DNA of 64,000 nt from Hormiphora californensis (Eukaryota > Animalia > Ctenophora), in the NCBI GenBank assembly GCA_020137815.1, contig CM035361.1, positions 4,650,001 to 4,714,000 on the forward strand, given 5' to 3'. Positions 1 to 60,040 of the stretch are shown piece by piece. How positions within the stretch are numbered: position 1 is the stretch's first letter; every line of letters begins with the position of its first letter. The position numbers and the translations under genes are program-made. Under the pieces are notes generated by a model. That model was not told where the DNA came from and ran no database searches. It saw nothing but the letters and a program-made list of their open reading frames with translations.

Positions 1-1375
1 CTCTCTTTCTAAACCCCATATCGGGTGGGCCACCATTCTACTAGTGACGATTCTACTGCATACCGGTAATTGATCTGCGTCTCTCCCCCTGGACCCCACT
101 CTTCCTTCTCCTACTATATCTCTCTTTCTAAACCCCATACCGGGTGGGCCACCATTCTACTAGTGACGATTCTACTGCATACCGGTAATTGATCTGCCCT
201 CTCTCCCCCTGACCCCACTCTTCCTTCTCCTACTATATCTCTCTTTCTAAACCCCATATCGGGTGGGCCACCATTCTACTAGTGACGATTCTACTGCATA
301 CCGGTAATGATCTGCGTCTCTCCCCCTGACCCCACTCTTCCTTCTCCTACTATATCTCTCTTTCTAAACCCCCATACCGGGTGGGCCACCATTCTACTAG
401 TGACGATTCTACTGCATACGGTAATTGATCTGCGTCTCTCCCCCTTGACCCCACTCTTCCTTCTCCTACTATATCTCTCTTTCTAAACCCCATATCGGGT
501 GGGCCACCATTCTACTAGTGACGATTCTACTGCATACCGGTAATTGATCTGCCTCTCTCCCCCTGACCCCACTCTTCCTTCTCCTACTATATCTCTCTTT
601 CTAAACCCCATATCGGGTGGGCCACCATTCTACTAGTGACGATTCTACTGCATACCGGTAATTGATCTGCCTCTCTCCCCCTCACCCCACTCTTCCTTCT
701 CCTACTATATCTCTCTTTCTAAACCCCATACCGGGTGGGCCACCATTCTACTAGTGACGATTCTACTGCATACCGGTAATTGATCTGCCTCTCTCCCCCT
801 GACCCCACTCTTCCTTCTCCTACTATATCTCTCTTTCTAAACCCCATATCGGGTGGGCCACCATTCTACTAGTGACGATTCTACTGCATACCGGTAATTG
901 ATCTGCCTCTCTCCCCCTGACCCCACTCTTCCTTCTCCTACTATATCTCTCTTTCTAAACCCCATACCGGGTGGGCCACCATTCTACTAGTGACGATTCT
1001 ACTGCATACCGGTAATTGATCTGCCTCTCTCCCTCTGACCCCACTCTTCCTTCTCCTACTATATCTCTCTTTCTAAACCCCATATCGGGTGGGCCACCAT
1101 TCTACTAGTGACGATTCTACTACATACCGGTAATTGATCTGCGTCTCTCCCCCTGACCCCACTCTTCCTTATCCTACTATATCTCTCTTTCTAAACCCCA
1201 TATCGGGTGGGCCACCATTCTACTAGTGACGATTCTACTGCATACCGGTAATTGATCTGCCTCTCTCCCCCTGACCCCACTCTTCCTTCTCCTACTATAT
1301 CTCTCTTTCTAAACCCCATATCGGGTGGGCCACCATTCTACTAGTGACGATTCTACTGCATACCGGTAATTGATC
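1..1375 (+). repeat. ~118-bp tandem array, 12 copies of the BCKDHA phospho-loop exon plus GT donor and pyrimidine-rich spacer
   Basis: Near-identical units GGTGGGCCACCATTCTACTAGTGACGATTCTACTGCATACCG|gtaattgatctgc...ctaaaccccata(t/c)cg. Confidence 0.95.
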
Positions 1376-4300
1376 AATTAATACTATACTGCCTCTCTCC
1401 CCCAATCTGACCGCACTCCCCCACCTTTCTCCCAACTTCTACTTTCTCACTGCTCCCCACTCCCACTTTCCCTCTAAACCCCCTCTCCACCCACTCCCCA
1501 CTCTCACCACCCCTCCCTCTCCACTCTCTCCCTAATACAGAAGTATAGATGAGGTAAACTACTGATCCCACTATCCCCACTCTACCCCACTCCTAACCCT
1601 CCCTCTAAACCCCCACTTTACCCCACTCCCATTCTACCCCACTCTCACCACCCCTCCCTCCCCACCCCCACCCTCGCCACTCTCCCTAATACAGAAGTAT
1701 AGATGAGGTAAACTACTAATCCCACTATCCCCACTCCCACTCTACCCCACTCCTGTCTCCTCCTAACCCTCCCTCTACTCCCACTCTACCCACTCCTCCT
1801 AACCCTCCCTCTAAACCCCCACTTTACCCCACTCCCACTCTACCCCACTCCTCCTAACCCTCCCTCTAAACCCCCACTCCCACTCTACCCCACTGTTCCT
1901 AACCCTCCCTCTAAACCCCCACTCCCACTCTACCCCACTGTTCCTAACCCTCCCTCTAAACCCCTACTCCCTCTCTACCCCACTGTTCCTAACCCTCCCT
2001 CTAAACCCCCACTCCCACTCTACCCCACTCCTCCTAACCCTCCCTCTAAACCCCTACTCCCTCTCTACCCCACTGTTCCTAACCCTCCCTCTAAACCCCC
2101 ACTCTACCCCACTATCCCCACTCTCCACCCTCTCCACTCTCACCACCCTCTCCACTCTCTCCACCCTCTCCACTCTCTATCCCGGCCCAACTCACATTCT
2201 CCCGACTCCCTCTAAACGCTCACTCTCCCTAATACAGAAGTATAGATGAGGTTAACTACTAATCCCACTATCCCCACTCCCACTCTACCTCACTCTCACC
2301 ACCCCTCCCTCTAAACCCCCACTCCCACTCTACCCCACTCTCACCACCCCTCCCTCTACTCCCACTCTACTTACCCAACTCACATTCTCCCGACTCCCTC
2401 TCCACCCCACTCTCCCTAATACAGAAGTATAGATGAGGTTAACTACTAATCCCACTATCCCCACTCCCACTCTACCTCACTCTCACACCCCTCCCTCTAA
2501 CCCCCACTCCCACTCTACCCCACTCTCACCACCCCGCCCTCTACTCCCACTCTACTTACCCCACTCACATTCTCCCGACTCCCTCTCCACCCCACTCTCC
2601 CTAATACAGAAGTATAGATAAGGTAAACTACTAATCCCACTATCCCCACTCCCACTCTACCTCACTCTCACCACCCCTCCCTCTAAACCCCCACTCCCAC
2701 TCTACCCCACTCTCACCACCCCTCCCTCTACTCCCACTCTACTTACCCCACTCACATTCTCCCGACTCCCTCTCCACCCCACTCTCCCTAATACAGAAGT
2801 ATAGATGAGGTTAACTACTAATCCCACTATCCCCACTCCCACTCTACCTCACTCTCACCACCCCTCCCTCTAAACCCCCACTCCCACTCTACCCCACTCT
2901 CACCACCCCTCCCTCTACTCCCACTCTACTTACCCCACTCACATTCTCCCGACTCCCTCTCCACCCCACTCTCCCTAATACAGAAGTATAGATAAGGTAA
3001 ACTACTAATCCCACTATCCCCACTCCCACTCTCTATCCCCACTCCCACTCTCTATACCGGCCCCACTCCCACTCTCTTCTCCCTCTAAACTCTCACTCTC
3101 CCTAATACAGGAGTATAGATGAGGTTAACTACTGGGACCGGGAGGACAGTCCAGTGGGTCGGTTAGCACAACATCTCATTACCAAGGGCCTATGGAGCAC
3201 TGATCTAGAGGAATCATACGCTAAAGAGGTAGTTGGATAGTCTTAGGAACCGACCGAATCAGGAAATACTGGTCCCTGATTGGCTGATAACCAGTCACGT
3301 GACCTAAATAACGAGTTGGGGGGGCCGTCACCTTTTTTTTTGTCTACAGGAACATTGCACCAGATTTTGAAAATGAAAGTGTAGACAAAAGTAGACAAAA
3401 GTAGACAAAACTTTTTTTTTCAAGTTAATAATAATAATAATACAGTCAGACCCCGATTTAGGGGCCCCCGATTTAGTGGCACCCCGATTTAGGGACAGGA
3501 TTTTTTTCCCCCGATATAGGAAATTAACCTTATTTGACCCCGATTTAGTGGACACCCCGATTTAGTGGACAAGAGCCTTTCCCCCGAGGGTGTCCCTAAA
3601 TCGGGGTCCGACTGTAACTATGTTTATATTCCGCCCATATCCGACAGGGACAGAGCAGTGAAACTGCTGCTGTCACTGAAGGATAATCTGAACGGTTAAT
3701 ATACTAGTAAGACCTTGACAACTTATCCCTAATAGAACAAAAATTAATAAAGAAAAAACACCGGCTCACATTACTATCGGCTCACATAACTATCGGTGAC
3801 TGATTACATAACAGACTGAGTTAGAGTCCTGGAACTCTAAAAAGATTGATATAAAAGTCCGTAGATTGGAAACACAGAAAAACACTCGTGCTATGAAAAA
3901 ACCCAACTTATGCTTCACACTTCTGCTCGCCACGAGTTAAGAATTTTTTTTAAATTTTCTGCACTTGTTAAGTATTCTCATACACATTATCTACGTTTCT
4001 ATTAGTAATTTCGATTTTAATTGCCCCCTCTTTACCCCCAACCACAAAAGTAGACAAAAGTAGACAAAAATTTTTCAAGTTTAGAAAACAATTCCCAAAC
4101 AATTTCTATCCTTGATATTTATTTCCATGTTCTCTATTTGGACTATATTTATGTGTGTACGGGTGTTTGTGACTTCAATTGCTCCCTCTTTACCCCCAAA
4201 CACTCTTAGAACACTTTAGGAACACCTGTAGACAAAAGTAGACAAAAAATTTCAAGTTTAGAAAACGATTTTTATCCTCGATATGTATTTCCATGTCCTC

Positions 4301-9246: not shown

Positions 9247-12200
9247 TCACCACCACCACCACCATTTGGCATTGAGAAGCTCCTTGATGGTCGTGAAGTC
9301 GTAGAATTTCTTGAAGAATTTGATGAAGAGGAAGAGGTTGAGGGGGATCTTCCTGTTCCAATTCCTGAATCTAAAATAAAAATAACGTTGTATCAGACCA
9401 CACGAAAAAAAGAGATATGATCCTAATTTGAAATGTCTGGCGGTATATATAGTAGTATTACAGTCGGACCCCGATTTAACGGCACCCTGATCGGGGGAAA
9501 GGGTTTTGTCTTAAATCGGGGTATCCGCTAAATCGGGGTCAAATACTATGTCGGGGGAAGATTATCCTGCCGTTAAATCGGGGTGCTGACTGTAATCAAA
9601 AACTTTACCTTGACTCGTCTGTCCTATCAAAACTGCTGGCGCTGCTTCTGGAACCGTATCCTGTTGAACCTAAAACATTATTACTTCGTACCGTAATCTG
9701 GGGTAACTTTGTTTTGCAGGGTAACTTTGGACACTTTCAAAATTTGGCTTTAGTCCAAAATTACCAACAGATAACGACAGATTTGGCATAATTTTTGGGT
9801 GTACAAGTAATTGACCCACAAATGTCTAAGTAACTAACGGTGCAATTATTTTTTTCAATTCTATGCTAATCAGCTCCTAATTAGAGCCAAACATAATTGA
9901 TGTCAAAATCGCTAAAAATGTTCAAATCAAAATGGGTACCATAGATTTGACCGGGCTAATGACCGAATCAAGTTTGCCCCATAGAGTGGAAGGGTTTCGA
10001 TCAAATAATTCGGGGTACCATTTTTCAAACCCGATCAATTACTTTAATTGAGACTAATAGGGGTGGCTAATGTTACCCCACCATTTTTTGAATTTTGGGG
10101 TAACTTTGGACGGGGTGCCAAAGTTACCCCACACTACAGGTTTTGAACTTTTGATGTCTGTAGAGTTGCCTTAGACCCTCACTGAATTATTTAGGGCCAT
10201 ATAACCAAGATTCAGCCCACTCCACGCCCATTTCCATCTATCTATTCGATAGGTTAGTGAAAAAAACTAGGATTTGGAATACTCTATGGAGCTAAATCAC
10301 AGTAATCCGGCCTGAAACCCATCAAACTTCAATAATTTGGGGTTCCTCATCCATCCTGTAGCTTGTTAGATGGTATTGGATCTCTAGGCGAGTGTTCTAG
10401 TTCTTGTAGACAATCTATGCAGGAACACAGGTACCAAAACTCCTTTATTTAGCCAGTACCCATAAGTAGACCACTTCCTGTCTATCCAATTCAGCAAAAA
10501 GAACTAACACACTCGCCTAGATAGAGGGCCAATACCATCTACCAAACTACAGGATGGATGAGGGACCCCAAATTACTGAAGTTTGATAGGTTTCAGGCCG
10601 GATGTGGCAACCTCTAAATCAAGTCCGATTGAGCTGAAATTTTATTTGGTGGCTAGTTTCATCATTCCTCACACCCAAAAAAGTTGAGTCGACATCATTT
10701 ATTGACCCATTTAAACCCCATTTAAACATTTTAGGTTCATTTATTTATCATTGCAAAATGTTCGAATTTATGTTTGTTCCAATATTACTATCGTGGGGTA
10801 ACTTTGGACGGGTGTCCAAAGTTACCCCACCCTCATTCCAAAGTTACCCCATGCCCTAAAACCCCACTTACACTAAAATACACGTTAATTAATGTAATTA
10901 AATGAGAGGGGACCAAAAATTTCACTAGTTATATCTGGTGTACTAGGTCTGGAACGGGATTTTTTGGTTCAAAAATTTTCGAGTGTGGTTCTGGCAAGGA
11001 ATTATTTTAGAAGAATGCTAAAAAGTGGTTGTACAAAGTTACCCCAACTTACGGTATAAACTTCGAGAAGGCTGAAGGAACCTAAAACTTATATTACCTA
11101 AAACTTATATTACCCGGATGTAAAATTAAACAAGAAAAGGACTAAGAAATTTAGTGCCATCATATCAGTATAAAATAACGATGAGATAATTAGTAATTAG
11201 GTTAATTGGTAAGTAATTAGTAATAACTTACCATTATTTGTTCCCTTGTTTGCCCCCGTGTAAAACCCCTGCCCTATTTTCCCTTGCTTCGCTAGCTCAT
11301 TGGTAGGCACGTATTTCTTGAAAGTTGTAGGCATACTACTCGTCCGATTTGAGTTCGATTTGTTGTTGTTGTTGTTGTTGTTATTGTTATTGCTGAAACA
11401 AATTTCCAATAAATCAACAAATATAGAAGGGTTGCTTCAACAGCTGCAGTATCAAATGACTTTGTGACATGAACACCTAGTGAGCGACTAACAGTGCTGC
11501 TTGCAGTCAAAATACGGTAACGCAAAATACAGTAAGGAGACGCGCACGGTGCATAACGTGCGGCAAAAAGTTCATGTGTCAGCACGTACTAGCGCCCTGT
11601 AGGGCACACGAGTTAGGTTCCTCGTGTTCCTACATTGTTTCTCTCTCAGAGTGGCTGAGAGTTAGTCAGGATAGGTATTTGATGATCTTATGATGGTTGA
11701 GAGTGAGTTAGGAGGATACAAATATTTAGGAATTCTTTAGGGGAGAATAGATATTATTTATTTGTTACAAGAGTTAGGGAGAGATATTAGAAGAAGAGAT
11801 TTTGGGACAATGTTTTAGATGAGTAGGAATAGCGGGTAGCCGCGTACTGGGGATTGTGCGACGTGCCGAGAGGAGAAGCTGCCACGTCAGCCTAGGCTGG
11901 CGTGGATCGCGTGATCTGAGAAAGAGGTGACCAGAGAGCGAGAGATGAGAGAGGGGAGAGTTCTGTTTTGAGGGGATTAGAATATGTGGCTCGGGAGATG
12001 GTGGGGAAAACCATCTCTCTTATATATTGGCTTTGCCCGAGTTTTGTGAGTCTCGTAGGAGGAGAAAGAGTTGTTTGAGGGAGTTGAGTTATTAGCAATA
12101 TGGTGTATTATCTATTTAGTCCAAAAACCAATTAAATAAATTAGTTTGGATGCCCGGGCCCATGTGGTGTCACGGGGGTAACACCTTCAGACTACTGAAT

Positions 12201-18397: not shown

Positions 18398-19291
18398 ATG
18401 ATACAGTCAAGAGGAGCACGGTGAAGTCCAAGGCCAAGAATAAACGCAACCAGACCACCTGAAATATAATTAAATTACATGCCCATATATGGTCTTAGAT
18501 AAAGTTTTAGGTTACATACAGATGTTTCAGAGAAAACGCTATATCATATTCATCATATTGTTTCTCATCTCATCTTAGATCAGTTATTACAGTCGGACCC
18601 CGATTATTCTCCCCCGATATAGGAAGTTAAAATTATTTGACCCCGATTTAGCATGGACACCCCGATTTAGTGGACAAAACCCTTTCCCCCGAGGATGCCG
18701 CTAAATCGGGGTCCGACTGTACATTCATTTAGCTCCTAGGAATTTAAAAAACACCCCTAGAATACTGATCCCGTAACAAATTGATCTGCGTACCTCCAAA
18801 AGCAAGCCCAAGGTTCTTGCTGTCCATATATTTGGTAGCAAAAACAACAACAAACATGGCCACGAGGAAGAGCCACAAAATCAGTGCGTCATTTGAACAC
18901 TCCTTATCTAAGGGAAGGGGAGACTAGTTTATTAATTAGTAATTATCAATTAGTTAATACAGTTACAAACAAAGCCGTTCTGGAGCGGCAATACAGAATG
19001 GGACTGCAGCGCCCACGGGAATCATAAGAACGGCTGCAGCTTCCCCCAAGATACGCCGGGTTGGTATTATATCCCGGCACTACAATGTTGAGCTCAATCG
19101 ATCCAATTACGAACCGAGAGCAGCAAACAAATTAAAATTAAAACAAATTAAAACAAGTCGGTTTTTGTAATTTGTTATATCCTGGAACTAAACTCACCGT
19201 TAATCTCCAGTATCCGAACGGTTAAAGCATAACCCAGGGAGGAAATAAGCACGAATATCTCATCAGGAAGGTAATGGTGAAACGGCTGCAT
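18398..19291 (-). CDS. Small multi-pass membrane protein, 5' exons only (3' end unresolved)
   Basis: Exons 19291-19198, 18907-18794, 18458-18398 join in phase: MQPFHHYLPDEIFVLISSLGYALTVRILEINDKECSNDALILWLFLVAMFVVVFATKYMDSKNLGLAFGGGLVAFILGLGLHRAPLDCI; three hydrophobic segments. Confidence 0.6.
18590..18719. mobile_element. MITE family B
   Basis: CAGTCGGACCCCGATT...AATCGGGGTCCGACTG, TA TSD. Confidence 0.85.
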
Positions 19292-40100: not shown

Positions 40101-43098
40101 CCTTGGTCAACTCCCTTTTCCCTTGGTCAACCGACCCTACTAGATGTCGTTGTCGGACATTTTGGATGTTCAATTTGAGCTTAGGAAAGATATAAATGAG
40201 GATTTGAGCCATTTCCACCGAAAATTGGCCGAATTTGAGGCAAAAACTGTTTTCCTAGCTATTTGAAACAGTTTTTGGAAAAATTCACTGCACCAAGCAC
40301 GTGCAACAAAATTCAGATTTCAGACATGAAATGGCTCTGTACAAGCCTTTTCTAACTATTCCATGTCAAAAATTTCGGTTTCGTGGACGACTTGAGGGAG
40401 ATACGCGGGTGTTTCAAATTTGCAGACTGAGGCGGGCTAATTGAAACACCAAATTTGGATAGATATCACGTGGTCCTGACCCCTGAAGACAAAATAAGAC
40501 ATCTCAAACCACCCCAGAAATTGCCCAGGGACTGCCTCGGTACCGTAAGGTCAAAAATGTTTGGCTTTGACTTGATTTGTGGATACTGGACACACAAGGG
40601 AAAAAAGTTAAAAATTGTTTCAATAGCCAGTGGCTACCCTACTCCCCATCACCACACCACGCTTTTCTACTTTATAGAAGAACTGGGGCGATCGATAGCC
40701 CCAGTTCTTTTACGAAGATCGTAAATCTAGAGAAAACTCGATTCCCTGTCCACGTGCTGGTGATTGTGCGACGTAGAAAACTCAACAATACACCACCGAA
40801 TCAGCAGGAACGCGCCAACCACCAATCTACACGTGAAATATCCACCCAATCTCCCCATCAATCCCCTTGCCCACCAACCATAACAAACCCTCAATTTGCA
40901 CGTGTATTTGCATTTAGTATAGTAACTCAAAGAGACCGTGTCTCTGAGACCCCACATTCTAATATCAGCTAAACCTTACCAAGAAATAGTTGCAATTATT
41001 TCTTGGTAGGGAAATGTCAATCAGTTAGTTAGTTAGTTAATACCCTCCGTAGGTTACTGATAGTCAGTACTGGCGGTGAGTTGTCCCAGGAGAGCGTATT
41101 GAAAGAAGCCTCAATTTTACTTGATATGGGACGGAAAACGGAAGCTTTGGCGCTGGCAAGGTCCCTCAGTCCTGGGTGTAAATTCAGAGCTACAGAACTC
41201 TCGCTGTTTCTCTGTGAAATTAACATTGCCGTTTACCCAGAGGTAATAGAAACAAAAAAGAAATATAAACTGGAGATTAGTCAAAAGATCTGACTGGTGT
41301 GTGTGAGATTTCAATCTGTGTGCGACGTCTTTAGATAGGCTTGGAGATATACTTAGATCTCGAGAAACTGTCCGACTTTGACTCATTTCACAGGTTCTGG
41401 CAACGCTTGAGTCATGTACTTCTCTCTTGGTTTCATCTTTTACTCAATCCTTATACAAGCGATATCTCCGAGTGATTCATCTCTTTACCCAACATTTGAC
41501 TAAGTTCTACATTTCCACTGGACTCCCTAGCAACCAGGTTTGGATCTAAGGGAGTCCAAACTTTGTTGCTTAGCAACAACGTTTGGACTCCCTTAGCACC
41601 ATCAGTTTTTACACTTAGCAACAGTTTAAAATGTATTTGTACAATGTACTGCATGCTAATGTACTTATAATCTAGGTTGAGACCCTGCACCGTTGGATAC
41701 AGTTCCTAGAATCCCGAGGGGAGGTGGGTCCTGGAACACTGGACACCCTGATCACCCAGCACCACGACATGTGTGTGAGACCCGGGCACACCAATCGGAG
41801 ACTATCAATAGCCGCCAGGGGAGTCCTTAGTGCAAGGTTTGGAGCTGTTTTAATGTTTGTTGTAAATCGAATTGTTATGGGACACCCGATTTTCTGGAAA
41901 AACTGTCCCCGGCAGTATTTATTAATTATGTTATTAATTATGCTGCTAATTGTGTTATAATAATTAATTAACATCGCTTTATTTTCAGTAAAAGGAAAAG
42001 TACAGTAGTGTCGCCAGGGCTCCATCATCAAACTAACAGATCTAGCCCAGTTCTCAACACAAGCTCCGTGAGTATGATCGTAGTTTTTGTTTATACAGGG
42101 TGTTCGTTTTGGATCTTTACAAGCGTTGGCCTTCACCCAGAAAAAATTTGACAAGATCAGGTCATGAAACTTCATACTTGGACTATTCTATACCCTCATT
42201 CAAGGTTCCTGGGGGTTTTGGAGCTCTAGCACCCCGAGAAGTGTGTTTTCGGCATCAAAACTACCAGAAGGAATTTTTTGCTGGTGCTGAGACTTTGCTA
42301 AAATGTTTTTTGGGTATTTTCTATGTCAATCCTAAAGTTTCATAGAGATTGGATGTGTTTTCGGACTCAAAATTTCGATAAAAGTGGCTGGAAAGGCTCG
42401 AAAACAGCTCAAAAACGGCTAAAATTGAGTCTTTTCAGCCACTTTTTACGAAATTTTGAGTCTGAAAATCACATCCAATCTCTATGAAACTTTAGGATTG
42501 ACATAGAAAATACCCAAAAAACATTTTAGCAAAGTCTCAGCACCAGCAAAAAATTTCTTCTGGTAGTTTTGATGCCAAAAACACACTTCCCGGGGTCCTA
42601 AAGCTCCAAAACCCCCAGGAACCTTGAATGAGGGTATAGAATAGTCCAAGCATGAAGTTTCATGACCTGATCTTGTCAACTTTTTTCTGGGTGAAGCCCA
42701 ACGCTTGTAAAGATCCAAAATGAACACCCTGTATAACTTTGAAGTTTTCGTTTTGAACGTTAGGAAATCAAGGAAGATTATAATCCTACCAGGAACTGAC
42801 TGAATCAGGAAATACTGGTCCCTGATTGGCTGATAACCAGTCACGTGACATAAATAAAGAGCTCTGATTGGTTGTTTACTTGGTTCGGTCGGTTCCTGAT
42901 TATAATCCTACAAATATCTTTCAGTCAGGGGAGTCACCGCCCCCTTCGCAACCCACTGGGGGGAGATCTGGTAGGAGGGTGAGTGTGGTAGCACAGCCAC
43001 GACTAGCTGGGAGAACTAGCGTGTTCGCTTTAGCTTCCCGGACAACAGCCGGAGGGAAAACTCTTACAACAACTTTCGAATCGGAAAAAGAGGCTTAA
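25147..43098 (+). CDS. TPR-like helical repeat protein (5' end unresolved, probably upstream of 24850)
   Basis: Phase-consistent GT-AG exons 25147-25171, 25239-25272, 26447-26550, 26723-26886, 27859-27962, 28092-28228, 34640-34783, 41053-41242, 41335-41415, (41460-41537), 41676-41836, 41989-42067, 42925-43098. TPR-like peptides include [49 protein letters not shown] and [21 protein letters not shown]. Confidence 0.72.
25280..25374. mobile_element. MITE family A (internally deleted)
   Basis: Exact TSD GGTACTAT, which overlaps the donor site at 25273. Confidence 0.88.
25581..26410 (-). mobile_element. 5'-truncated L2/CR1-group LINE
   Basis: ORF2 C-terminus ([16 protein letters not shown]...[23 protein letters not shown]), 3'-UTR and (TTA)n tail; flanked by duplicated TGTTCATAATAAT. 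Confidence 0.9.
27017..27656 (+). mobile_element. Helentron-associated (HINE/DINE-1-like) non-autonomous element
   Basis: subTIRs TTCCCTGCCC (27021) and GGGCAGGGAA (27610), (GTCC)n microsatellite, 3' hairpin GCATTATG-AATA-CATAATGC, terminal CTTGTT. Confidence 0.7.
28635..30878 (+). pseudogene. LINE ORF1 (coiled coil + RRM-like), interrupted by a foldback element
   Basis: Joining 28635-28812 to 30301-30878 restores a 251-aa frame (...[28 protein letters not shown]...[13 protein letters not shown]). Confidence 0.85.
28813..30291. mobile_element. MULE-like foldback element with ~570-bp TIRs
   Basis: GGCAATTTCTGATTTGCCGCATACGG...; exact 9-bp TSD GTCAGCAGC (28804-28812, 30292-30300); arms rich in GTCTAGACGG. 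Confidence 0.93.
31054..34266 (+). CDS. LINE ORF2: AP endonuclease + reverse transcriptase
   Basis: ETWL, GDLNFP, SDH endonuclease motifs; [26 protein letters not shown] motifs. True start codon uncertain. Confidence 0.96.
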   Translation: MTHLSIFNPTNNHSLSLHYCMSVMFSSCADVEVWAVAVLLWRSTISRLVCVSVSYYVSGISITLLVVSNPSIVNPGPRKLKVIFANVQGLVSPGHVGSADPPLNMAKVYEIQDYVYRNDIDIVIFNETWLKSKIDSSLVFPRNYKVFRQDRTGYTHPRDPNNPLKFRENGGGVLIAHRENIDVTSVRFSGVRARAELLTISLSFSSGKKLCVSTFYRVGNLSEDNFLQFKEHFNAIFSRRNVCKHVLVGDLNFPGVDWPLSYPRTGIEDSFLRYLLDDLGHSQMINTPTHIGGRILDLCFTNDPECVNNFDILDSDVLCSSDHFPFTFNINMDVKNVKEDRRKVLLFDKGDFESICADLSAINWTNVFTGDMEYNVSAFNSIITSLIEKYIPTKLVKNIVLPIWWSSECENARTRKENLRKRYKSSGLKSDYDNFSAARSYFKNVCDSRSRNCLDIDDTDNISKKFWRQVKVNSKSTRIPNIVNDGVVFKSDSEGQSNLFNQHFVSNFSSPSNYNIEETVENIFDAGDLASYEFSGSEIHSVLSALNARKGPGPDGIHSIVFKKCAGVLAYPLSLLYNQAYFTSDLPSIWRSANVVPVHKSGDKRDVRNYRPISLTCIAMKVFERMMSNRLLDLCFDKIDRRQHGFLPGRSCLSQMISFTDTLFQTDNNRLTTDIIYTDYKKAFDSVSHDIILEKLTSKFGITGKLLGLIRVYLMGRTQRVAVGGSLSSPLAVASGVPQGSIIGPLLFVLFMNDVYDCLEGDCECLVYADDVKLFNKITSFRDHLDLQLSIDNLYRWSVDNKMTLHPLKCKVVSICSSRCVQTWGQLPFFYMNYTLNGVDLIGVDSQRDLGVFVSQDLSWKYHIDFILQQFTDRFNMLRRTVHFIKNIHQRRILYLSLVRSLLEHCPQVWAPTQVGLRVKLEAAQKRAIKWVYCVNPIVSWSEEIYYLNLSNISILPIHLHFLFNDLKLFYKVISGIINLDLPPYLFLKSPTDISYRTRANRDIIDLVDFTTVGCTVQPLSAAFRNSFFVRTYPKWNELPVEIRQSSSLDIFSIGLKTRLFKSITPPAPP
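35373..36536 (+). CDS. Papain-family (C1A, cathepsin L-like) cysteine protease with C-terminal ShK-like domain, intronless
   Basis: Signal peptide, I29-like prodomain, [17 protein letters not shown]; six-Cys tail [10 protein letters not shown]...C...CRKYCTKC; AATAAA near 36682. Confidence 0.95.
   Translation: MKFLIVLLIALAHAKDDGLKTILQSPTKTLELYKKFKGEQHLQFSSAEEGMRFRLFKLSAHFVASENDVEGETAHFALNMFSTMAEAEKQSYLGLNVTGHENDNDDVADDLLAEGVSAPSEKLWTNEGKVTPVKNQGSCGSCWTYGAVGGLETRYATKTGVLRNFAEQEYLDCVYSTRNGCNGGWPDDCYTYSARYGRLAPSSSYSYRGYDSTCKRNFHNDGLVAATINGKISVGVSESQNIAALAHGSLSMAFQATTRFLSYSGGILSDNTCTGRANHAVTGVGYTSEYILVKNSWGSSWGDRGFVKFARGYPSDCKLFAHSSYPALSSTGYPDSGSDAATTYNPKPCENTVSGELCRQYDDAYNYCKYDWFKEDYCRKYCTKCSD
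37674..39620 (+). CDS. Secreted SRCR-like protein with central (PAPT)n linker, intronless
   Basis: Signal peptide; SRCR-like motifs [24 protein letters not shown] and [19 protein letters not shown]...NVSC...SLDSC; TATAAAA near 37592. Confidence 0.88.
38478..38788 (+). repeat. Coding 12-bp tandem repeat, about 26 copies
   Basis: (ACACCAGCACCC)n encoding TPAP. Confidence 0.95.
39849..40057. mobile_element. Palindromic MITE with CCC...GGG termini
   Basis: CCC(T/C)CATCAGAATGTCGCTCGGCAATTTC TIR. Confidence 0.75.
42096..42731. mobile_element. Tc1/mariner-type foldback MITE
   Basis: CAGGGTGTTC...GAACACCCTG, TA TSD, ~310-bp arms. Confidence 0.9.
42790..42898. mobile_element. MITE family A
   Basis: Flanked by a 13-bp direct repeat ATTATAATCCTAC. 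Confidence 0.88.
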
Positions 43099-43556: not shown

Positions 43557-43564
43557 CTCACATT

Positions 43565-44786
43565 TCAAGATACCACCACCACGGGTATATCGACACAAAC
43601 GAGCATGGAGCCAGTTGTAGAGTCCTTGAGCTTCCATCTGGACACCAGTTTAATTGCTGGGTAGGAAGGCTGAACGTTGAGAGACTGAAAAACGGTTGTA
43701 GGTTAATCGGGTAAAAATTTGTTTTATCCTCCCGAATAGATCTAGGTTATATGGAGTATACGGACTTGAAATTATATTTTTTTCTCTACTTTTACTAGAG
43801 TCTCTGCTGTGAGGCCAATGCTCTGACAAAGTCTCTGAGTAAAAATAAATATTTCAATTTTCAATCAAACCTCTGTGAACGTGGCAGTTGTCCCCGAGGC
43901 AACTGGACATACGTTCCCACAGGCGACACAACCATCACTGAAATTGTGGGGTATTCGTGTCATGATTGGGAAGATTCTTGTTCTTATGACCCTCCTTTAC
44001 TGCAAATGTAAAGAGGGTCGGGCAAGGCAAAAAGATTCATTACATCATCAATGTTCCCAAAAACTCAGTTTTTGACTAACGGTTGGGGTAAAGGGAAGAC
44101 ATAACACGACACATAATGCCCTAATATGGACATAACGTGACACATAATGCCCTAATATGGACACGATACTAACGGTTGGGGTAAAGGGAAGGGGACGGGT
44201 ATTCCAGCAATAACTCCAGCAAGACTGGCCTTCATTGACGTGACAGCCACCTTAGATTTAAAGGTTACATTGATATCGTAACTGTGTCCTAGGAAAGTTA
44301 TAAGTTTTAGACTGATATCAATTAGCAAACTCTTAGATGACATCTCTTATCAGAACTTTATTTCATTTTGGATTTCACTTCATGAAAAACATCCTGAAAG
44401 CTGAGTTTCAATTCCTACATCTCTGTCTCTGCTCTCTATAATTGTAGCATACGGTGTGTATGTAACTATAACCTATCATACCTTCATGGCAGGAACCGAC
44501 CGAAACAAGTAAACAACCAATCAGAACTCGTTATTTAGGTCACGTGACTGGTTATCAGCCAATTGCAGGGACCAGTATTTCCTGATTCGGTCGGTTCCTG
44601 CTTCATGGTAGAGTGAGTAACTTTACCTTTTCGAGCTTTGCAAACAGGATCAGTGCAAGCTTTACTGAAAACTTTGATTATCTCTCCAGAGCTGCTGCCA
44701 CAGTCCTTGAAAGTTAGGTCAACTGCAGAAACAACTGCAGCCAAGGCGAGAAGGAGAAGAATTGAGCGCTGTAGAATAATCATCAT
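43565..44786 (-). CDS. NPC2: NPC2-like sterol-binding ML-domain protein
   Basis: Exons 44786-44627, 44288-44174, 43937-43871, 43684-43565: signal peptide, FKDCGS, GIPVPFPLPQPDGC, YPAIKLVSRWKL, CVDIPV. Confidence 0.92.
44490..44600. mobile_element. MITE family A
   Basis: Exact TSD CTTCATGG. Confidence 0.92.
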
Positions 44787-45697: not shown

Positions 45698-48303
45698 CTA
45701 TCTGAATCCATCTAACACCGCAAAAGGGTCGTCCATAAGGGATAGGTCGTCCTCCATACAACTGCATTCAGTGACAACCATGATTGCTCGGTAGCTGTTG
45801 GGAGAAAGTAATTGATTAGTAATTAACTTGTTGGGAGGAAGTAGTTAACCTGTAATTAACTTGTTGGGAAAAAGTAATTTTTTATCAATCAATTAATCAT
45901 TTATAGCATATATTTGAAGTATGACAAACTTGAACCAATGAACCACTGATAAGTTTATTAAACTTTTTGACTAGCCTTGGCAAGCTCTAGGTTACTCTGT
46001 CGAGCACTTTCGCTGCAGCATAGCATCTCTTTACAGATCAAGAAAAGAAGTTTACACACTCACTGTAGTTTGGTGGACCCTAATATGGGCATATAAACTC
46101 ACTGTAGTTTGGTGGATCTCCTAATATGGACATATAAACTCACTGTAATTTGGTGGATCTCCTAATATGGGCATATAAACTCACTGTAGTTTAGTGGATC
46201 CTGGACAGATGAATCTCTCCGTGGAGACATGCCAGGAAGTTGGTTTGTTTGCAGAGCCAACATCACACAACTCCGTGCAGCGGGTGTGGGGGATAGTGGT
46301 TACTGACTTGCACTCATCTACTATCAGGTAGGTGTTCACCTGGAGAGGGGGTCAAGGTTAGTCCAATTGTTGAGTAACCAGTGGTTACCAGTGGTTACTA
46401 GTGGACTAAGTTAGTCCATGATACCCCTTACTTAGTCCTTAAGATACAGATGTGATATTATTTTCAATTTTAGCACTGGCACGATTTCAAATCGTATATA
46501 AATTTAGAAAACTATAAAAAACATAGACATAAATATTGGCAGTAAAACTACTATTGTAGGAAAAGAATTTTGTAGTCTTTTTGGCGCTCGAATTAAAGGT
46601 ATCTTAAAATTGCAGCTGTATTAAGTACTGCCAATATAAAAGTATTTAATAGGCAGCAAGTTATCGTGTAAGTGCATGTGTGTGTTTTGCACCTCCCATG
46701 GATAAAAGTATAAAATATTATTGGCAGAAGGCAGTGCGAAGCTTATACAAGAGGCTATGTACATAATCATGACTTACTTGAGCGTTTCTATTTGTAAGTG
46801 GATCAAAGACTACGTCACAATCTCGAACGTTACAGTAGGCAGATTCAGCAATTTCCTCCCCGCATTTCCTTCTCTCTCGGTAGGGTAGTGAGAACTCTAA
46901 ATACCTGTAAAATATAAATGAAGTCTTTCACCTGGGTCTGTAAAAAGTTCACCCCTTACTCAACAAGTAAGAATTGGTGATCATAAACAATTGTTACCCA
47001 ACAATTTCAAGAAGGTTCATTTTTGAGTCAAAAGGTTCCATTTCTATTGATTAAACATAAGAACACTCTTGTTTTCTACCTATTCATGGTCCCAGGGCCG
47101 CATTCAGAGGAGCATTCCGTCCAATCGCTCCACGTTGCTGACGAGTGGCAATCTAAGATAGGATTAGGTTTTAGAGAACAAGTATCATGCTGCCAGAGCA
47201 ACCCCAATGAACCGCACCAACCCCTTGGTGACATAGACACCTGTTTAGCATTGTTCTAACCCTCCCTTTACATACACAAAGTATAGCTACTGCTAGGCAA
47301 TTACCTGTTGGGCATTGTTCCCCAGATGGCAGGACCCCATTGTTGTAGGAAACTCGGAGAAGAGTGGCAGTTTCAAGCTGGGAAATGGGAGCAAACCCAT
47401 CAAATCCGGATCCCGCGTGAACACTGAAAGATGGATTCTGTTTACTCCAAACAGAACAAATACATTAATTGTTAATTACAGATTAAATATAATCGGATAT
47501 TTGATATTATGTGTAGTCGCATGACAGACAGCGATTAGTTTCCGCCGAAAAGAGTTTAATCTTATCTCTGTCTCAGTAACAAAAGAGTTGGCATATTTAC
47601 CCGAAGGATCCATCCTCATATCGTGTGAGAAAGAACGCTAACTTTGCTCCCTTTTCTAAGTTCCTATAGCAGTTGCCTCCTGAACAAATGCTAAATGTCA
47701 AAGGTGGCCAGTAATTGTTTTCTTCAAAAGAATCATAAAAAATTATATTTTATTAATTTTAAATTAACTTACGTCCGCTGAAGTAGGCCGTTTCCACGCT
47801 AATTATCTCCGATGTGACTGGTCCTTTGAATCGACACAGCACTGACACCGTCAAAACTAATTTATATGAACTCTCCCTGCAAAGTATCCAGTCAAAAAGG
47901 GATACAAATTTTTTTTCTTTTCTTGTTTAGCCTTATTTATCTATTTTAGCTATTTCTGTAAAGCTTATGGTATTCACCAAATAGCAAGAACGCGAACGAT
48001 TGAGTAACGTAAATGATACCTTCCATCGAAGTGTGAGAGAGGGACAGATCAGGGTCGGGCAAGGCAAACGCTTACTCTCGTTAAAAAGTTTCTTACTAAA
48101 GCGTTTCTTAAAAAACGAGAGTAAGGTATATCATTTATTTCTCACCTATGAGTAGCAATGATTTCCCCATACACAACAGAGTCAAGGTAAGAGTTACTGT
48201 TAGTTAGTTGCTGAAGGGTCGGAACGGTGCAGGATTTAGCCGCAGAGAGGGAGGGGAGGACAAGGAAGAGAGTTATGAGGTATGATCCTAGGTTTATCAT
48301 CAT
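45698..48303 (-). CDS. Secreted 303-aa protein: NtA/NTR-like + TSP1 + CT cystine-knot-like domains
   Basis: Exons 48303-48146, 47876-47773, 47679-47601, 47423-47305, 47152-47080, 46904-46778, 46339-46185, 45794-45698 are all in phase. Motifs: DSVVYGEI...VSVLCRFKG; WSDWTECSSECGPG...CNVRDC; ECKS...FICPG...MVVTECSC. Confidence 0.85.
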
Positions 48304-49487: not shown

Positions 49488-51115
49488 GTAAAAAGCAAAT
49501 AAAAATGAAACCAATCCGGAGCGTATAAAATAAAAAATGATCAAAATTCAGTTTTTTTTAAAACTAATCCCCCTGATTCCGGATGGGCTATACAGCAGGG
49601 AGCTTCCTATTATTGGGCGCCAATTAGGACTTGGATCAGGAAACTGTTGTATACTGCCAATACAACAGTCTCTCGAGGGAAGCCCTGTAAATCCAATAAT
49701 TGGCACGGACATATATATTGATACATATATATTTGTACAAGCTCGAAAACCAATATATGTGGGCGGAGGGAGAGGGAGGAGTCGGTCTGTAGAAATTTGG
49801 CGCTTTTAATGGACAGGAGAGAGAAAAGTGAGGTGCTAAAACTGTTTTTGAATAGAAATCTCTCTCAAATGAGCAAGTGATTTCTGAAGGAAAGATTAAA
49901 AATAGATGGAATATTTTAGAATGCTTTTATGTATACTTCTTGTGAAGTTTCACTTGAAGAATTCCTGCAATAAAATATTTAAATATATTTGTTCGTACAT
50001 GATATACCTAGCCACTCACGAGCACCAGTGTCGACCAAATCGTAAAGACGAAATTCGCCATAGTTCTTTAATCTTTAAAGGGTCTCACACCTGACACTCG
50101 CAGAAAATGTGTTTTTTAGACCTCCCCGCGCTAACATTTGTCACTCCCTGTATTACATAAAATGTACCTGTGTCCACGGTTTGACAGATGTTAAACTCTG
50201 CAGAAGATGATATACCTAGCAAACTTTTGACATACCGATTACCAGGACTGTTAATCGATTGTGACTAGACTATTTGAGCCCTAATTGCTATAATAATAGG
50301 GCCTATAATTATAGGGGCTTGTATATTCTCAAAAAGTTTATAAAAAAGGAAAAACCATATTGTGACAGCTATCGACCAAATAAAATCACATAGGATTTGT
50401 TCAAAATCCACAAAGTCGTTGAATTTAGCCGCACAGGTCCTAGATCCACAGTTAACCACAAGAGTTTAATACTGCAGTGCCTCAATCCAACGGTGCACAA
50501 CTGCACAATTTGATCCCTTTTTAAACCTCCAATGGGATATGGGTTTTAATAGTATCGATATCACCCATATTATTATTGTGCAGTTATATTTTGATTATCA
50601 GGGCGTGGTGATTCTAATAATAATATATCCATCCGTGCTGCACCAAGATATAGACGAGATAGAGAATAATTTAGTTTTCTATATCTCGATTAAGATTTAA
50701 GATTATCAATAAAGATCTATCCGGCTTCAGAACAACTGCACATATACCCACCAAATTTGCAGCAATTGGTGATAAATGAAAAGATATTGTTGATGGTCCT
50801 TGTCCCGGAGAGTGCTCTACTCACGGTTGCGAGGAGCTATTTACAAGTAAAACAAGGAACTGTTGAACTAAAACCTCCTTGTTTTACTTGTAAATGAAAA
50901 GATATGAAGATACGAAAAATAACACACTTTTTGAAAAATAATCAATTTCTAAAACAAGGTCAAACTTTCAAACACTACCATAAATCACTAATTTTCAATA
51001 ACTCTTCAAAACTGATAAGAAGTAAAATTTTCCTAGCACCATGCATGCAAGATTTCTCAATTCCGAGCTGATATCGAATCAGCGGGGTTTCAATATTCGG
51101 CGGGTATTTCCAGAT

Positions 51116-53508
51116 CTAATCCTCCTTAACATGGATAGTGAATCGAGCATTACCTCCGGTCCCGGTCTGTTTGGGATCTCGGGGCTCCTAATTAGGGGAA
51201 GAAAGGATTGGTTTAAGATTATTTTTCTGAAGGAGACAACCTATAGATTAGACTAGTTCTATGAACGAAATCATATGTTTGCGTGTCCCGTAATTGAACG
51301 GATGCGGGCCTAGAATACAAACATCATTTTTTTAGGAAGGGGGGCCGATCTGGGCCTTAATTATTATAAACATCCCTTGAAAAAATATTGTATTTCAGTA
51401 CCTGATCCTCGTTAAAACCAATGTGTCGTCCAGGGAAGTTTACAGACTGGAAAGACACGGATCCGTCCTTGTGGAAATTGGGCTTGAATACACAGTATCG
51501 ACCTCCCGCTCCCTGTACACACAAAGAAAATGTGGTTAGATATGTAGAGTGGTACATAATAAATACGCAAATTAGGTGGTTAGATGTTATAGAGGAGATG
51601 TAGTCGAGTGGTGGATTTGAATTAGCAGGAGTTGTAGATCTGTTATAGTAGAATTTTCTACAGATATTCAAATGAAAAGCTAATGATGATTTGTTAGGAT
51701 CTTTGCAGCCTGCAACAGTGTATCAATCACAACTCACAGTTGTAAGACCAGATTTCTTGATGGCGATGAATCGGTGAGGCTTGTTTTCATTTTGAAGTCT
51801 GAGAGTTCCATCGTGATCGTTCTTTTGGACGATAAATGTTGCCCAGCTTCCATTTCCACCTGGGTGAGATATATTCTTGTTTTGTTGTGGGGCGCGGGGA
51901 AGGAGGTTCGAACAAGGCAAATGTATTCAGAGTGAAATTGCTGCTAGAAAAAAACTAGCTAATTAATGAAAATTTATTGCTGATTTAAATACCAATTAAA
52001 TGCTAATTAATGAAAATTTATTGCTAATTTAAATACTAATTAAGCAATAGTTAACTAATCAAACACTAATTTAATACTAATTAACTAATTAACTAATTAC
52101 CCTGAAGATCCAGCTCGTCATCTCCATTGCACCTCACGTGGCCTCCATGTCGAGACTCCAGGTGGATTCGAGAACCATCCTGCATCTTACCGAACCGGGC
52201 TGAAATCGAATCAAGGGGTTACTTTAATTTGGAAGGGATTTTTTTTTAATCACGGGGTTACATTTCTTGTGGGTGTTGTGTGTGTGCTTCGCTGCCAACT
52301 TCGTCAGAGACGAAGTACGGGGGCGGAGCGACTGCGTCGCTCGTGCGTTACATACAGGGGATAGCGCGACGTGCCCAAGTGTGTATGAGTTGAAGTGCTG
52401 AAATTATCACGGGCGGGATGGTTTTTCCCAGACAATTTTAGTTTGAACCTCGCGGTTGCGCGAGTTCTAATACCAGCTGCTAGACAATACAAATACTCAC
52501 CGATGACGTAAGAAAAGTTGTCTGTTTTCCTCTCCTCGCCTCCAAAGGGGAAGTGGCACTCAAAGTTTCCACTGTCAAAGTTGAACTTTCCCGGAATATC
52601 TCCCTCATCAGTATGAGCAACGGTAACGTAGGTACAAGCACCATCATCCTTGGAAGGGAGTGTTAATACCATATATGGGCATGACACGTGACCCACACTC
52701 CATATATGGGCATGAGACCTAACATACACTCCATATACGGGCATGACACATAGTATACCTGGGCACCGAGAAGGAGAGCTCCCTCAGGGGGATCATTTCC
52801 CTCCACAGCGGGCCTCAGGATAACACCATGTCCATTAGAACTGATCCACTCGAAATCCCCGCAAGTGTGCTCTTCTCCTCCATAGGGAAACCAGCATTCT
52901 CCACCATTAGCCTGGGCTTTTCCTAAAAATAGCAAGGAATAACTTTGCGGTTTTTCCTAAAATTAATAAGGAATAACTTTGCGGTTTTTCCTAAAATTAA
53001 TAAGGAATAACTTTGCGGTTTTTCCTAAAAATAAAAAGGAATAATTTTGCGGCTTTTCTTAAAAATAACAAGGAATAACTTTACAGTTTTCCTAATAATG
53101 ATAAGGAATAACTTTGCGGTTGAGACTTCAAGTACTCCCGCGCCCATAAAGGGACTGGAAGCTCACTCCTTGTTATCATACAAATGAGAGTAATTTGTAG
53201 TTACCTGGGATTGTACCGAACTCAGTTCGAGCGAGGACACAATAGTAATCACCCGAATCATACTGATGTCCCAGCCTGAAGAAAATAAAATGAGGTTTAG
53301 GGATATATCCACACAGATTTTGGAAAAAACGGCACAGTTTTTGCTTCACCGACACAGAAAGGGTAGCCGTTCATCCAAAGTTATTGATAACTTTATGAAG
53401 TTTTGTGAAGAATTATGAAGATCTGTGAAGATTTGTGTACCTGAAAGAGTGGTCGGCACATCCGTCCCCGCACTCGGTAAATCGAAGTCCACAACAGTCA
53501 CGATCCAT
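51116..53508 (-). CDS. Cytosolic protein with two DM9-like repeats and a C-terminal beta-trefoil-like domain
   Basis: Exons 53508-53441, 53275-53205, 52922-52759, 52648-52501, 52199-52101, 51859-51738, 51512-51402, 51187-51116. Motifs: GTIPGK...CWFPYGGEEH, GDIPGK...CHFPFGGEE, DGSRIHLES, DGTLRLQN, DGSVSFQSVNFPGRHIG. Confidence 0.85.
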
Positions 53509-54391
53509 GGTTATTTGCTTGGGGGAATTATATTTATACTTAATTGGTTTATTGGTTACACTTTTTGTATAATTGGAGTAATTAATAATGTGATTTTTAT
53601 GTCACTTTTACTATAGGTATGACAAAGAATAGACCAAGCTTCGTAATTGATGATGGTGATCAAAGCGACAAAATATAAAAAGGAAAATGGGGCATTGTTC
53701 GGCAACAGGTTTTCTGAAATACAAAGAATTGGAAACCACGGCGGGGGGTTTTGTCAGACGTGGCACAACAAGTTCTTATCTAATTGTTGAAAAAAAGGTA
53801 ATGTTTCACGAAGTGATAAGGATATTATAGAGAGGCTCCTATTTCTTTCTCAAGAAAATGTTCAATGCCCTGTCAGGCCAATGCTCTGACAGTCAATGCC
53901 TTATCTGTTTACGTTAGAGATTCACAAAAAGAGATAAATATTGAATAAACATTAAAGAATTACAGTATTCTTGCAGTGCTGGATATGGAAGTGGCCATGG
54001 CTTGGGGTAACGAAATTACCCATACCTTACGGACACCTACCGTGATATGCCTCCGTTACCAAATATTTTTATAGGCCAACTAAAAATGTTGGATGAGTAG
54101 CTTACACTCCCACAAAAGTGGCAAATACACCACTCTTTTGAATATTTCTATGCGAAAACGGCACTCCCTTTCTACCGATGAAAATAGGATATATTCTCAG
54201 AAAAAAAACGCAGCGACCAATATGTAGCTGCAAAACTGGCAAAGCTAGCGGGCCAGGAAGCTAGACGTTATATTGGATTATGGGCTGCATAGAAAGCTAC
54301 TGGGCTGGACGTGGATTCAATAGACCAGGGAAAACATATACCCCCGCAATATATGCGTATAGCAAATGAGCTGTAATCCAACAGCTCGTGT

Positions 54392-56401: not shown

Positions 56402-56602
<201 letters not shown>

Positions 56603-57509: not shown

Positions 57510-60040
57510 ATGGCCCACCTGGGGATTGATTTCGGGACCACTTCAGTGAAGGTTTGCCTGAAATTAGCTGATGGAACCACTCGAGAGGCCAAGGTAAAGA
57601 GTTTAGTAAATTAGAATTTGAAAATGTTGTAACTTAAAACCAGATTATATGATCTGCAATTGTAAATTGTTCTGTCACAGGAGCATTGGCCTGAAACTTT
57701 CAGGACAATGCTCCCGTTCAGAGTCTGGCCACGGTTTTCGCCTGCAATATGGCCAAAGCTCTGTCAGCCCATGGATATGACATGTACCCTTAATCATGTT
57801 CCAGGTGATTACAAAGCTCACAAACCAGCTGATACCATTAATTGTTCCAGGTGGTCCACAACAGCGACTCAAGCCCCGGGGAGCAAGACGCCATGGAAAC
57901 TTTTTTAGCCGTCACAAGCGCTATTGAGGAGCTTTCTGCCTGCTTTTTTGGTGGATTGGTAGTGGATACCTTATCAACCTGTTGTCAAATGCATGGTAAG
58001 AACCTGATATAACACCATATATGGGCATCACGTGATAATAACTCTCCATACATGGCCATCACTTGATAATAACCAGGAACCGACCGAATCAGGAAATACT
58101 GGTCCCTGATTGGCTGATAACCAGTCACGTGACCTAAATAACGAGTTCTGATTGGTTGTTTACTTGTTTCGGTCGGTTCCTGATAGTAACGCTCCATATA
58201 TTTAGAAACATATGAAACCCGATAGCTGATTTATCAGTCGTTTGAACATTTTGCGCGCACATGATATCTGCTAGCTGGGGGATTTAACACCCTGCTCGCG
58301 TTTTAACAGTCCAGTTCCCTTTTTCTCGCGTTTCTCTTGATTTGAATAACAGGCGTGTAAAATTCCAAGTAATAAAAATGTGTGTAAACACACAGTTCCG
58401 TCAACAAGAGAGAGAGGAAACATGTCTGCAACACTTTTCAATGTTATCTCTCTCATAAAAAAGCAAAAGAATCGCATTCCTATCTTTCTCTCTCTCTCAT
58501 TCCCTCTTTTACTGTTCAATATCTCTCACTGTGTGTATTGGCCCCAATCTTGCTCTCTCTTACTCAAATATGTTAGGAACAGTTGCAACTAGGTGCCAGT
58601 TAGTCTACACACAGTTTGGGGACGTCTGTTGACTATTTTCCAGTACTCCTTGTGTGTTTTACCTTGTGTTGTGTCTCTTATTTATGTGTAATTACTATCG
58701 GGTTTCATAAACTATGAACGTTTGTTAGCCTATCGCGTTATAGGTTTAAATCACCTCCCCCTCACCCTCGGCTGGCGCCTCGGGATCGGCGTCGGGATTT
58801 AAACCAGTTTAATCGCCCTGCTGGGCGATTAAACTCCAGTTGGCTGTCCCCAGCTCGCGCTGGCAACAGCCAACTTCATAACGCGCCAGTCTACAAACGT
58901 TCATAGTTCATATATCACGTGACCACAGTTCCAACTCCAGGTTTAATTCTGTGGAACACCGATGGAACATGTTCACGTCTCATAACCTGGGAGGATGGAA
59001 GGTGCACCCCGGAATTTCTTTCTCAGCTCAAAAAGAAATCCAACCGGCCCCACGTAGATTTACACACGGGATACGGTTGTGCTAGTTTAGCTTGGATGAG
59101 AGAACATGATATGCGCCAGCTCCAGAAATGGCAGTTTTCCGGGACAATCGGCGATTACTTTCTCTGGAGACTGTGCAGTGGCATGAAAGGATCCTTTATC
59201 AGCGACCAAAATGCCGAAAGTTGGGGGTTTTTTGATGCGACCACTGGTGATTGGGATTGGGAGGCAGTGAGGGCACTGGGAATTGATAAATGGCTTCCCA
59301 AAGCTGTAGTCCCAGGAGGAACTGTCGTAACTGACAACCACCAGTGTTTGAACCCGGGACTGCGCGTGGGAAAAGTGTTTGTGCCACTGGGAGATCTCCA
59401 GGCTTCGGTTTACTCGGTCATTGGCGGGAACTCCGGTCGAGTTTTCAATTATGGCACTGCGTGTCAGCTTATAAAAACTGTACCCCCACAAGTTACCCAG
59501 CCACCGATTCTAAACCCATCCTTCCGAGTTTGTCGCTATACTCGGTCCCTTCACCTTCTCACAGCTGCTTCACTAAACGGTGGGAACGCCTTGAAACCCC
59601 TTCAAAACCAGACTGGAGTTCCATTTTCGGAGATTTTAGAGCTTGCTTGGCTGCGTCGGGATACCCCACTGAGATGCAAACCGACCTTTTTGGGCGAGAG
59701 ACATGATGTGAGTGGAAAGGGTCGGTTCTGGAATGTTGGGCTTGATAACTTTACCACCGGTGATATTGCGGCTGCTATATGCCGGGGTGTAGTGGAAAAT
59801 GTAATTGAAATGATGGGCGACCAATCAGAGAGATCAGATCAACAAATGAACCAATCAGAGAGATCATACAATCAAGAGGGCCAATCAGATTTGAGCAATA
59901 ATGTGGATATGTATGCTGTCGGTATTGCCAGTCGGCCGATTATGGAGTACTATGTGAGGAAACTACTGGGTAATTTCAAGTCGGGTGAAGCATCCGCTGC
60001 ACTGGGGGCTATACAGTTTAACCTTGGCGAGTCAGTTTAG
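57510..60040 (+). CDS. SHPK: FGGY-family sugar kinase, sedoheptulokinase-like
   Basis: Exons 57510-57593 (LGIDFGTTSVK), 57851-57995 (EQD...CQMHG), 58941-60040 (LITWEDGRC, GYGCASL, QNAESWGFF, LGDLQAS, AASLNGGN, PTFLGERH). Confidence 0.9.
58074..58182. mobile_element. MITE family A
   Basis: TSD ATAATAAC/ATAGTAAC. Confidence 0.9.
58211..58907. mobile_element. Two adjacent MITE-like elements in SHPK intron 2
   Basis: TATGAAACCCGATAG...CTATCGGGTTTCATA (~58211-58708) and ACTATGAACGTTTGT...ACAAACGTTCATAGT (~58711-58907). Confidence 0.6.

Follow-up and report, generated by a model that had tools for sequence, protein, structure and literature searches.

Why should the introns of unrelated genes carry tandem copies of their own splice junctions? 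The question is raised by a stretch of 64,000 nucleotides (nt) from the ctenophore Hormiphora californensis (GenBank assembly GCA_020137815.1, contig CM035361.1, positions 4,650,001 to 4,714,000, forward strand), hereafter the window, where donors or acceptors are repeated inside introns of BCKDHA, NPC2, a TSP1-domain gene, a DM9/FGF-fold gene and an SHPK-like gene. The pattern itself proved to be known already, while its enrichment at junctions is unproven. All counts were drawn from this one window, which was chosen because the pattern is visible there. We built 9 spliced gene models with open frames, containing 32 complete GT-AG introns; the shortest intron has 93 nt and the longest 3496 nt, with a median near 240 nt. 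Together with a BCKDHA intron cut by the window start, these make up a set of 33 introns and 65 visible junctions. The arrays are listed below, followed by three further features found beside splice sites.

1..1375, plus strand: BCKDHA donor array, a 118-bp unit repeated 11.6 times with 12 donor copies, cut by the window start
1523..3133, plus strand: BCKDHA acceptor array, 7 decoys and the real acceptor at 3110
44075..44191, minus strand: NPC2 intron 2, donor in two copies, a 24-bp direct repeat made of 18 exonic and 6 intronic nt
46058..46202, minus strand: TSP1-domain gene intron 7, donor in four copies, a 41-bp unit with a CArG box in three of the copies
52915..53121, minus strand: DM9/FGF-fold gene intron 2, acceptor in six copies, a 34-bp unit of about 24 intronic and 8-10 exonic nt, real acceptor at 52923
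57783..57865, plus strand: SHPK-like gene intron 1, acceptor in two decayed copies 46 nt apart, real acceptor placed at 57850 from the reading frame
45796..45879, minus strand: array abutting the last acceptor of the TSP1-domain gene, 33 bp repeated 2.5 times, stopping 1 nt before the exon
11080..11114, minus strand: 16-bp repeat in two copies, ending at an acceptor and reaching only 2 nt into the exon of a gene modelled from frame and consensus only
41519..41610, plus strand: hairpin that follows a donor, accompanied by a degenerate copy of the exon end without GT; not a tandem of the junction

The copy numbers proposed in an initial annotation of the window hold (12 donors and 8 acceptors in BCKDHA, 4 donors in the TSP1-domain gene, 2 in NPC2, 6 acceptors in the DM9 gene and 2 in SHPK). 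Its statement that the repeat units straddle the exon-intron boundary is clearly correct for five arrays, namely the BCKDHA donor and acceptor, the TSP1-gene and NPC2 donors and the DM9 acceptor, each with at least 6 nt on either side of the junction. In SHPK the straddling pair is decayed, with an 11-nt exact core and 26 matches in 35 aligned columns, and falls under our straddle detection threshold of 13, which was reached by 0/145 shuffled introns. The supposed acceptor-like copies at 45796-45879 abut the exon and end in CAA instead of CAG. Both of the weaker cases it named fell away: the repeat at 11080-11114 merely abuts its exon, and the region at 41520-41625 holds the hairpin with the GT-less copy. 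This hairpin (41552-41598, z -6.8) lies just past the donor, comes with a degenerate copy of the exon end in direct orientation and looks like a fold-back templated insertion.

The arrays differ in construction. Their units vary from 34 to 187 bp, with differing boundaries and no common ends, and several arrays are merely 82-93% alike between copies; the BCKDHA donor copies are 97% alike. The BCKDHA donor unit consists of about 50 nt of exon end, 10 nt of intron start and intron-like filler; its coding part agrees with bacterial E1-alpha at 12/17 residues, directly before the match of the next exon. In the other four straddling arrays the exonic reach is 23, 18, 18 and 8 nt. The two NPC2 repeat copies flank a 69-bp filler made of two 31-bp CArG-bearing units, and the 41-bp TSP1 unit can be aligned, apart from a 7-nt insertion, to the final 39 nt of the exon end and donor. 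Decoys in the BCKDHA acceptor array have AG ends at 1540, 1694, 2237, 2424, 2609, 2796 and 2983, and all seven have a common base at exon position +1, unlike the real site. In the DM9 array copies 2 and 3 are identical and copy 5 has decayed. In BCKDHA the GT or AG is intact in all 12 donor copies and in all 7 acceptor decoys; among the other arrays it is kept by three donor decoys in TSP1, one in NPC2 and most of the DM9 decoys. Individual decoy sites lie at 52957, 52991 and 53025 in DM9, 57804 in SHPK, 44080 in NPC2 and 46143 in TSP1.

Which copy is spliced? Comparisons for BCKDHA, NPC2, TSP1 and DM9 show that the exon-adjacent copy is the one predicted to give the homologous protein, as the initial annotation had held. 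For example, P0003, the closest protein found (94% identical, a related organism's model of the TSP1-domain gene), passes straight from the exon ending at 46185 to the exon starting at 45794, and DM9 homologues align to the exon beginning at 52922. The true BCKDHA donor exon lies upstream of position 1, which places the productive donor outside the window. Homologues back the exon chains of BCKDHA, the DM9/FGF-fold gene and a gene at 19291-18115; backing is partial for the TSP1-domain gene, is limited to exon 2 for NPC2, and for the SHPK-like gene the FGGY match is confined to exon 3. A homologue search with NPC2 exon 1 found none, and a PDB search with NPC2 exon 3 gave no meaningful match. 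Any intact GT or AG decoy, if used, would cause a frameshift or a stop. This was computed for TSP1, NPC2, DM9, SHPK and the 16-bp case; in BCKDHA it is evident from the sequence, each acceptor decoy piece finishing in a stop codon. Since decoy use would break the protein, a productive exon-adjacent copy is nearly a condition of gene survival and does not indicate a special mechanism.

Four of the seven BCKDHA acceptor decoys (1541-2996) also have an improved internal donor 13 nt in (scores 7.3-8.1 vs 5.0), so that 13-nt pseudo-exons are possible within them.

The explanation that we favor, with a probability of roughly 60%, is that the arrays are junction-spanning minisatellites produced by ordinary local duplication, which persist because the exon-adjacent copy still wins splicing. 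We infer the mutational steps and the silence of the decoys as follows. A seed duplication across the border would arise by slippage or break repair; when it covers a single junction, one intact exon would remain and the spare copy would fall in the intron. Unequal exchange among copies would then enlarge the array, and duplications lying wholly inside exons would be lost. The decoys would be silent, or their products removed by nonsense-mediated decay. The base common to all seven BCKDHA acceptor decoys points to copying among decoys or to a later change at the real site. The same local duplication is likely to be behind the other intronic repeats of this genome, 13% of which is reported as tandem repeat in the available part of its description (PMC8527503). 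In the window, the share of bases in local direct repeats is 34% for introns (14% for those shorter than 500 nt), 10% for intergenic DNA and 4% for exons, and because the introns are short, overlap with junctions would be common through geometry alone.

Are junctions hit more often than this background predicts? The initial annotation had called for a comparison of junction-spanning k-mers with intron-internal controls. We asked at which junctions a 16-mer across the junction recurs in its own intron with at most 2 mismatches and within 250 nt. Recurrence was found at 4/65 junctions, compared with 1653/6010 intron-internal positions (27.5%; mean per intron 11%). The expectation from each junction's own intron is 6.6 (P 0.95), and four other settings gave 2-4/65. 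A second test was made per event on 30 duplication events, with SHPK added by hand, microsatellites omitted, 7 events with units under 14 nt dropped, events internal to transposons judged by eye and the missing BCKDHA exon set at 120 nt. Six of the 23 remaining events straddle a junction, against 3.6 expected by placement in their own intron (P 0.11) or 3.0 in pooled introns (P 0.049). Among non-transposon events the count is 6/16 (3.3 expected, P 0.075, own intron; 2.3 expected, P 0.013, pooled), and without SHPK and long units it is 3/12 (2.1 expected, P 0.35, own intron; 1.0 expected, P 0.064, pooled). Over 10 test variants the excess was 1.4-3.6-fold with P between 0.013 and 0.35. The arrays are beyond chance as repeats, with a focus on junctions relative to other repeats that is only borderline; a two-fold excess is possible but is not established by a window that was selected for the pattern.

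Several points weigh against local duplication as a full account. The per-position control takes in the junction arrays themselves, which biases it against an excess and understates any that exists, and the pooled-intron null gives an excess of 2.0-3.6-fold (P 0.013-0.064). Three additional repeats stop no more than 2 nt away from a junction. In a matrix trained on the window's own splice sites (the score of DM9 copy 6 was left out), donor decoys score equal to real donors, three DM9 decoys outscore the real acceptor (9.9-10.8 vs 8.5) and so does the SHPK decoy (11.9 vs 9.3); predicted strength of this order makes the silence of these acceptor decoys less than obvious. Finally, a CArG motif occurs in 2/6 arrays, which neutral duplication would not predict.

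The NPC2 and TSP1 arrays have this 14-nt motif in common; it combines a CArG box with the flanking bases of the SRF consensus. Measured against the 18-nt consensus for SRF binding, a CArG box flanked by ATG, as tabulated in the available part of PMC2553773, the window has 3 exact matches where about 0.0001 are expected, and 7 (three exact, four near) at up to 2 mismatches where 0.08 are expected. CArG boxes of the form CC(A/T)6GG number 17 against 6.4 expected, and ATG-flanked ones 10 against 0.15. All 10 ATG-flanked boxes are intronic and fall at 5 loci.

18479..18496, plus strand: single site, an exact match to the tabulated SRF consensus, lying 24 nt ahead of an acceptor in the gene for a small membrane protein (19291-18115)
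44116-44164: NPC2 donor array, 31-bp tandem
46079-46174: TSP1 donor array, 41-bp tandem
52665..52749, minus strand: DM9 gene intron 3 (110 nt), 31 bp repeated 2.6 times, with one exact 18-nt match, boxes at 52665-52744 and no junction included
58005..58073, minus strand: SHPK intron 2, 31 bp in two copies, with an exact match to the tabulated consensus, the CArG starting 20 nt past the donor and boxes at 58011-58059

At every locus a box lies 14-24 nt away from a splice site; of the positions in collapsed introns, about 12% are as near as this. Given that the motif was discovered through two junction arrays, the independent test of closeness comprises three loci only (about 0.002 if random). 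Four of the five loci are tandem, with periods of 31, 31, 31 and 41 bp, and an E-box-like hexamer stands just upstream at three of the five, the flanks outside the core otherwise differing. One of the 7 boxes without the ATG flank (51187-51196) overlaps the last DM9 acceptor. The alignment of the TSP1 unit to the exon end, with its 7-nt insertion, suggests that the box there may have arisen inside the exon copy. RNA hairpins at the CArG loci were considered and rejected (z between -1.5 and +1.1 at all five), and MEF2-like sites in the DM9 acceptor array were set aside, as the pattern has 23 matches in the window and coincides with the AT-rich acceptor tract. A search of a limited literature collection without supplements gave no report of CArG arrays in ctenophores. 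The putative SRF-type clusters beside splice sites are in our judgement the part worth pursuing; they are tied to a subset of the arrays (NPC2 and TSP1).

The initial annotation attributed the arrays to a duplication process focused on splice sites. Such a process, acting for example through breaks or template switches at sites of co-transcriptional splicing, would duplicate junctions preferentially in this lineage. It would account for the pooled-intron excess among non-transposon events (6/16 against 2.3, P 0.013), for the three repeats that end next to junctions and for the exact duplicates in NPC2 and TSP1, whose intronic part is in both cases the first 6 nt. Yet the intronic part is at least 10 nt in the remaining arrays, placement within the own intron cuts the excess to 1.4-1.8-fold (P 0.075-0.35), the per-position excess is absent, and these numbers come from a window selected for the pattern with event labels that are our own. 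With an excess ranging from 1.4- to 3.6-fold per event and none per position, we consider this process, judged by the refuting condition that the initial annotation had named, not established and rather unlikely. Tentative too, and to our mind somewhat more doubtful, is a cause residing in the CArG sites: high-affinity SRF sites just inside the junctions of short introns might drive, or be selected for, in-phase tandem amplification at 31 and 41 bp that drags the neighboring donor along. Either selection for more binding sites or destabilization of local DNA by a bound or palindromic site could be responsible, and the periods correspond to about 3 and 4 helical turns. The surplus of exact consensus matches, the confinement of all ATG-flanked boxes to introns near splice sites, the tandem state of four of the five loci and the dissimilarity of their flanks past the core, bar the hexamer, are in line with this idea, which would concern the NPC2 and TSP1 subset and is compatible with local duplication. 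Against it, 4/6 junction arrays have no CArG, the way in which the motif was reached leaves three independent loci, the 31-bp period in common may reflect a dispersed repeat unit of one origin instead of SRF binding, that binding is predicted from sequence, and the host genes are in our judgement not an obvious SRF set.

The decoys could also be functional, diverting part of the transcripts to frameshifted or stop-containing forms and so tuning expression. Most decoys retain GT or AG and score like real sites, and pseudo-sites of human 6-16 and CBS are sometimes used, according to the available part of PMC1557585; the host genes, however, are unrelated, copies decay (DM9 copy 5, SHPK), and splicing is undisturbed by comparable amphioxus and F7 repeats in the accounts at hand, which makes such regulation improbable. 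Least probable is that the arrays are artefacts of assembly. The BCKDHA donor copies, 97% alike, differing partly by homopolymer length and running off the window start, would fit an artefact, but the copies differ from the real junction by substitutions both shared and private (2-5/42 at the BCKDHA acceptors), and several other arrays are divergent; at most the BCKDHA copy number could be wrong. Junction-spanning minisatellites maintained by survivorship remain our preferred explanation.

The surroundings contain further repeats and mobile elements. A dispersed element with inverted ends, about 109 bp long and resembling a miniature inverted-repeat transposable element, is found at 3244, 8836, 42790, 44490, 45099 and 58074, with more copies seen by eye near 5700, 25281 and 43451 and a similar copy in a contig of RNA run X1. 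Copies at 44490 and 45099 have 8-bp flanking duplications, which we take to suggest a hAT-type origin. At 31114-34266 an intact open reading frame of 1050 amino acids with endonuclease and reverse transcriptase domains represents a non-long-terminal-repeat retrotransposon; it is preceded by a 202-amino-acid frame at 30270-30878. A foldback element made up of 11-bp repeats, with 561-nt arms that are 99% complementary (28812-30292), lies just upstream of these frames. Other long inverted-repeat elements occupy 42091-42736, 21715-23095 and 13834-14184. A tandem pair of intronless genes encodes a papain-family protease (35373-36536) and an SRCR protein (37674-39620), the latter with a 12-bp repeat in 26 copies encoding Pro-Ala-Pro-Thr.

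Gene models at 14977-9229, 41053-43098 and 63999-60287 are based only on reading frame and splice consensus. P0003 is without four middle exons, the TSP1 exon among them, that are present in the open frame at 48300-45698, reflecting either an isoform or a difference between gene models. Exon-like stretches and short repeats at 49950-50950, between the DM9 and TSP1 genes, are unannotated and may raise the junction count. A metagenome scan gave 3 relatives, of transcript length only, and the scan for DNA relatives sharing a window repeat found no stretch in either viral_contigs or genome_contigs. An RNA run gave a single contig on each of the regions 41000-48700 and 48900-54300, less than 90% alike. 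One RNA joint fits removal of DM9 intron 6 in a relative (247 skipped, 22 between, a 225-nt intron) and says nothing on decoy use.

How do these arrays compare with known systems? The initial annotation knew of no name for the pattern, which has one: in amphioxus, junction repeats of Adh3, the globins BflGb6 and BflGb9, troponin C (TnC) and PGBD5 are called mirages, and human precedents are on record (PMC3087553, PMC3902484, PMC1557585; comparisons refer to the available parts of these reports). Amphioxus mirages hit both types of boundary, apparently without disturbing splicing; their origin was termed unclear (PMC3087553, PMC3902484), and they were put forward as raw material for new introns (PMC3087553). 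Mirages are natural tests of spliceosome choice among identical sites. A dense ctenophore set adds the deepest animal branch to their range, and the window contributes acceptor arrays whose decoys outscore the real site. If the CArG link were true genome-wide, a repeat class of unclear origin would gain an explanation, in which one transcription-factor motif repeatedly causes junctions to be duplicated and introns to grow; it would also point to intronic elements under SRF regulation in ctenophores. The window sites match the available SRF consensus by sequence only, and are placed beside splice sites and in tandem arrays. Introners or other transposon-made introns do not fit, as all that the five CArG introns share is a core of 14-18 nt and the hexamer, which occur in both orientations and at one end of the intron or the other. 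A search of the same limited collection gave no ctenophore report of mirages.

The human minisatellites whose first unit lies over an exon-intron border include the 37-bp variable number tandem repeat in F7 IVS7, 6-16, CBS IVS13, LMNB2 and PDGF intron 4 (PMC1557585). Splicing of F7 relies on the most upstream donor only; in 6-16 and CBS some pseudo-sites are used (PMC1557585). The likeness to the F7 type is close, with unit 1 covering the border and identical donor copies coming after the real donor. The human cases named are all donors in scattered single genes, whereas the window also has acceptor arrays, with about 6/66 junctions affected. The amphioxus mirages have the same anatomy, a tandem unit across the exon-intron boundary with extra copies in the intron, many of them keeping GT or AG. 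Their trait of homogenized inner copies and a divergent edge copy recurs in the window at BCKDHA acceptor exon position +1 and in DM9 copies 2 and 3. Normal splicing and length polymorphism were demonstrated in amphioxus, whereas the window arrays are known from sequence alone; they belong to a ctenophore, and two of them carry an SRF-type CArG box, a feature unmentioned in the available parts of the amphioxus reports. Overall, we assign the window arrays to the mirages, of which they are a dense new instance in a ctenophore.

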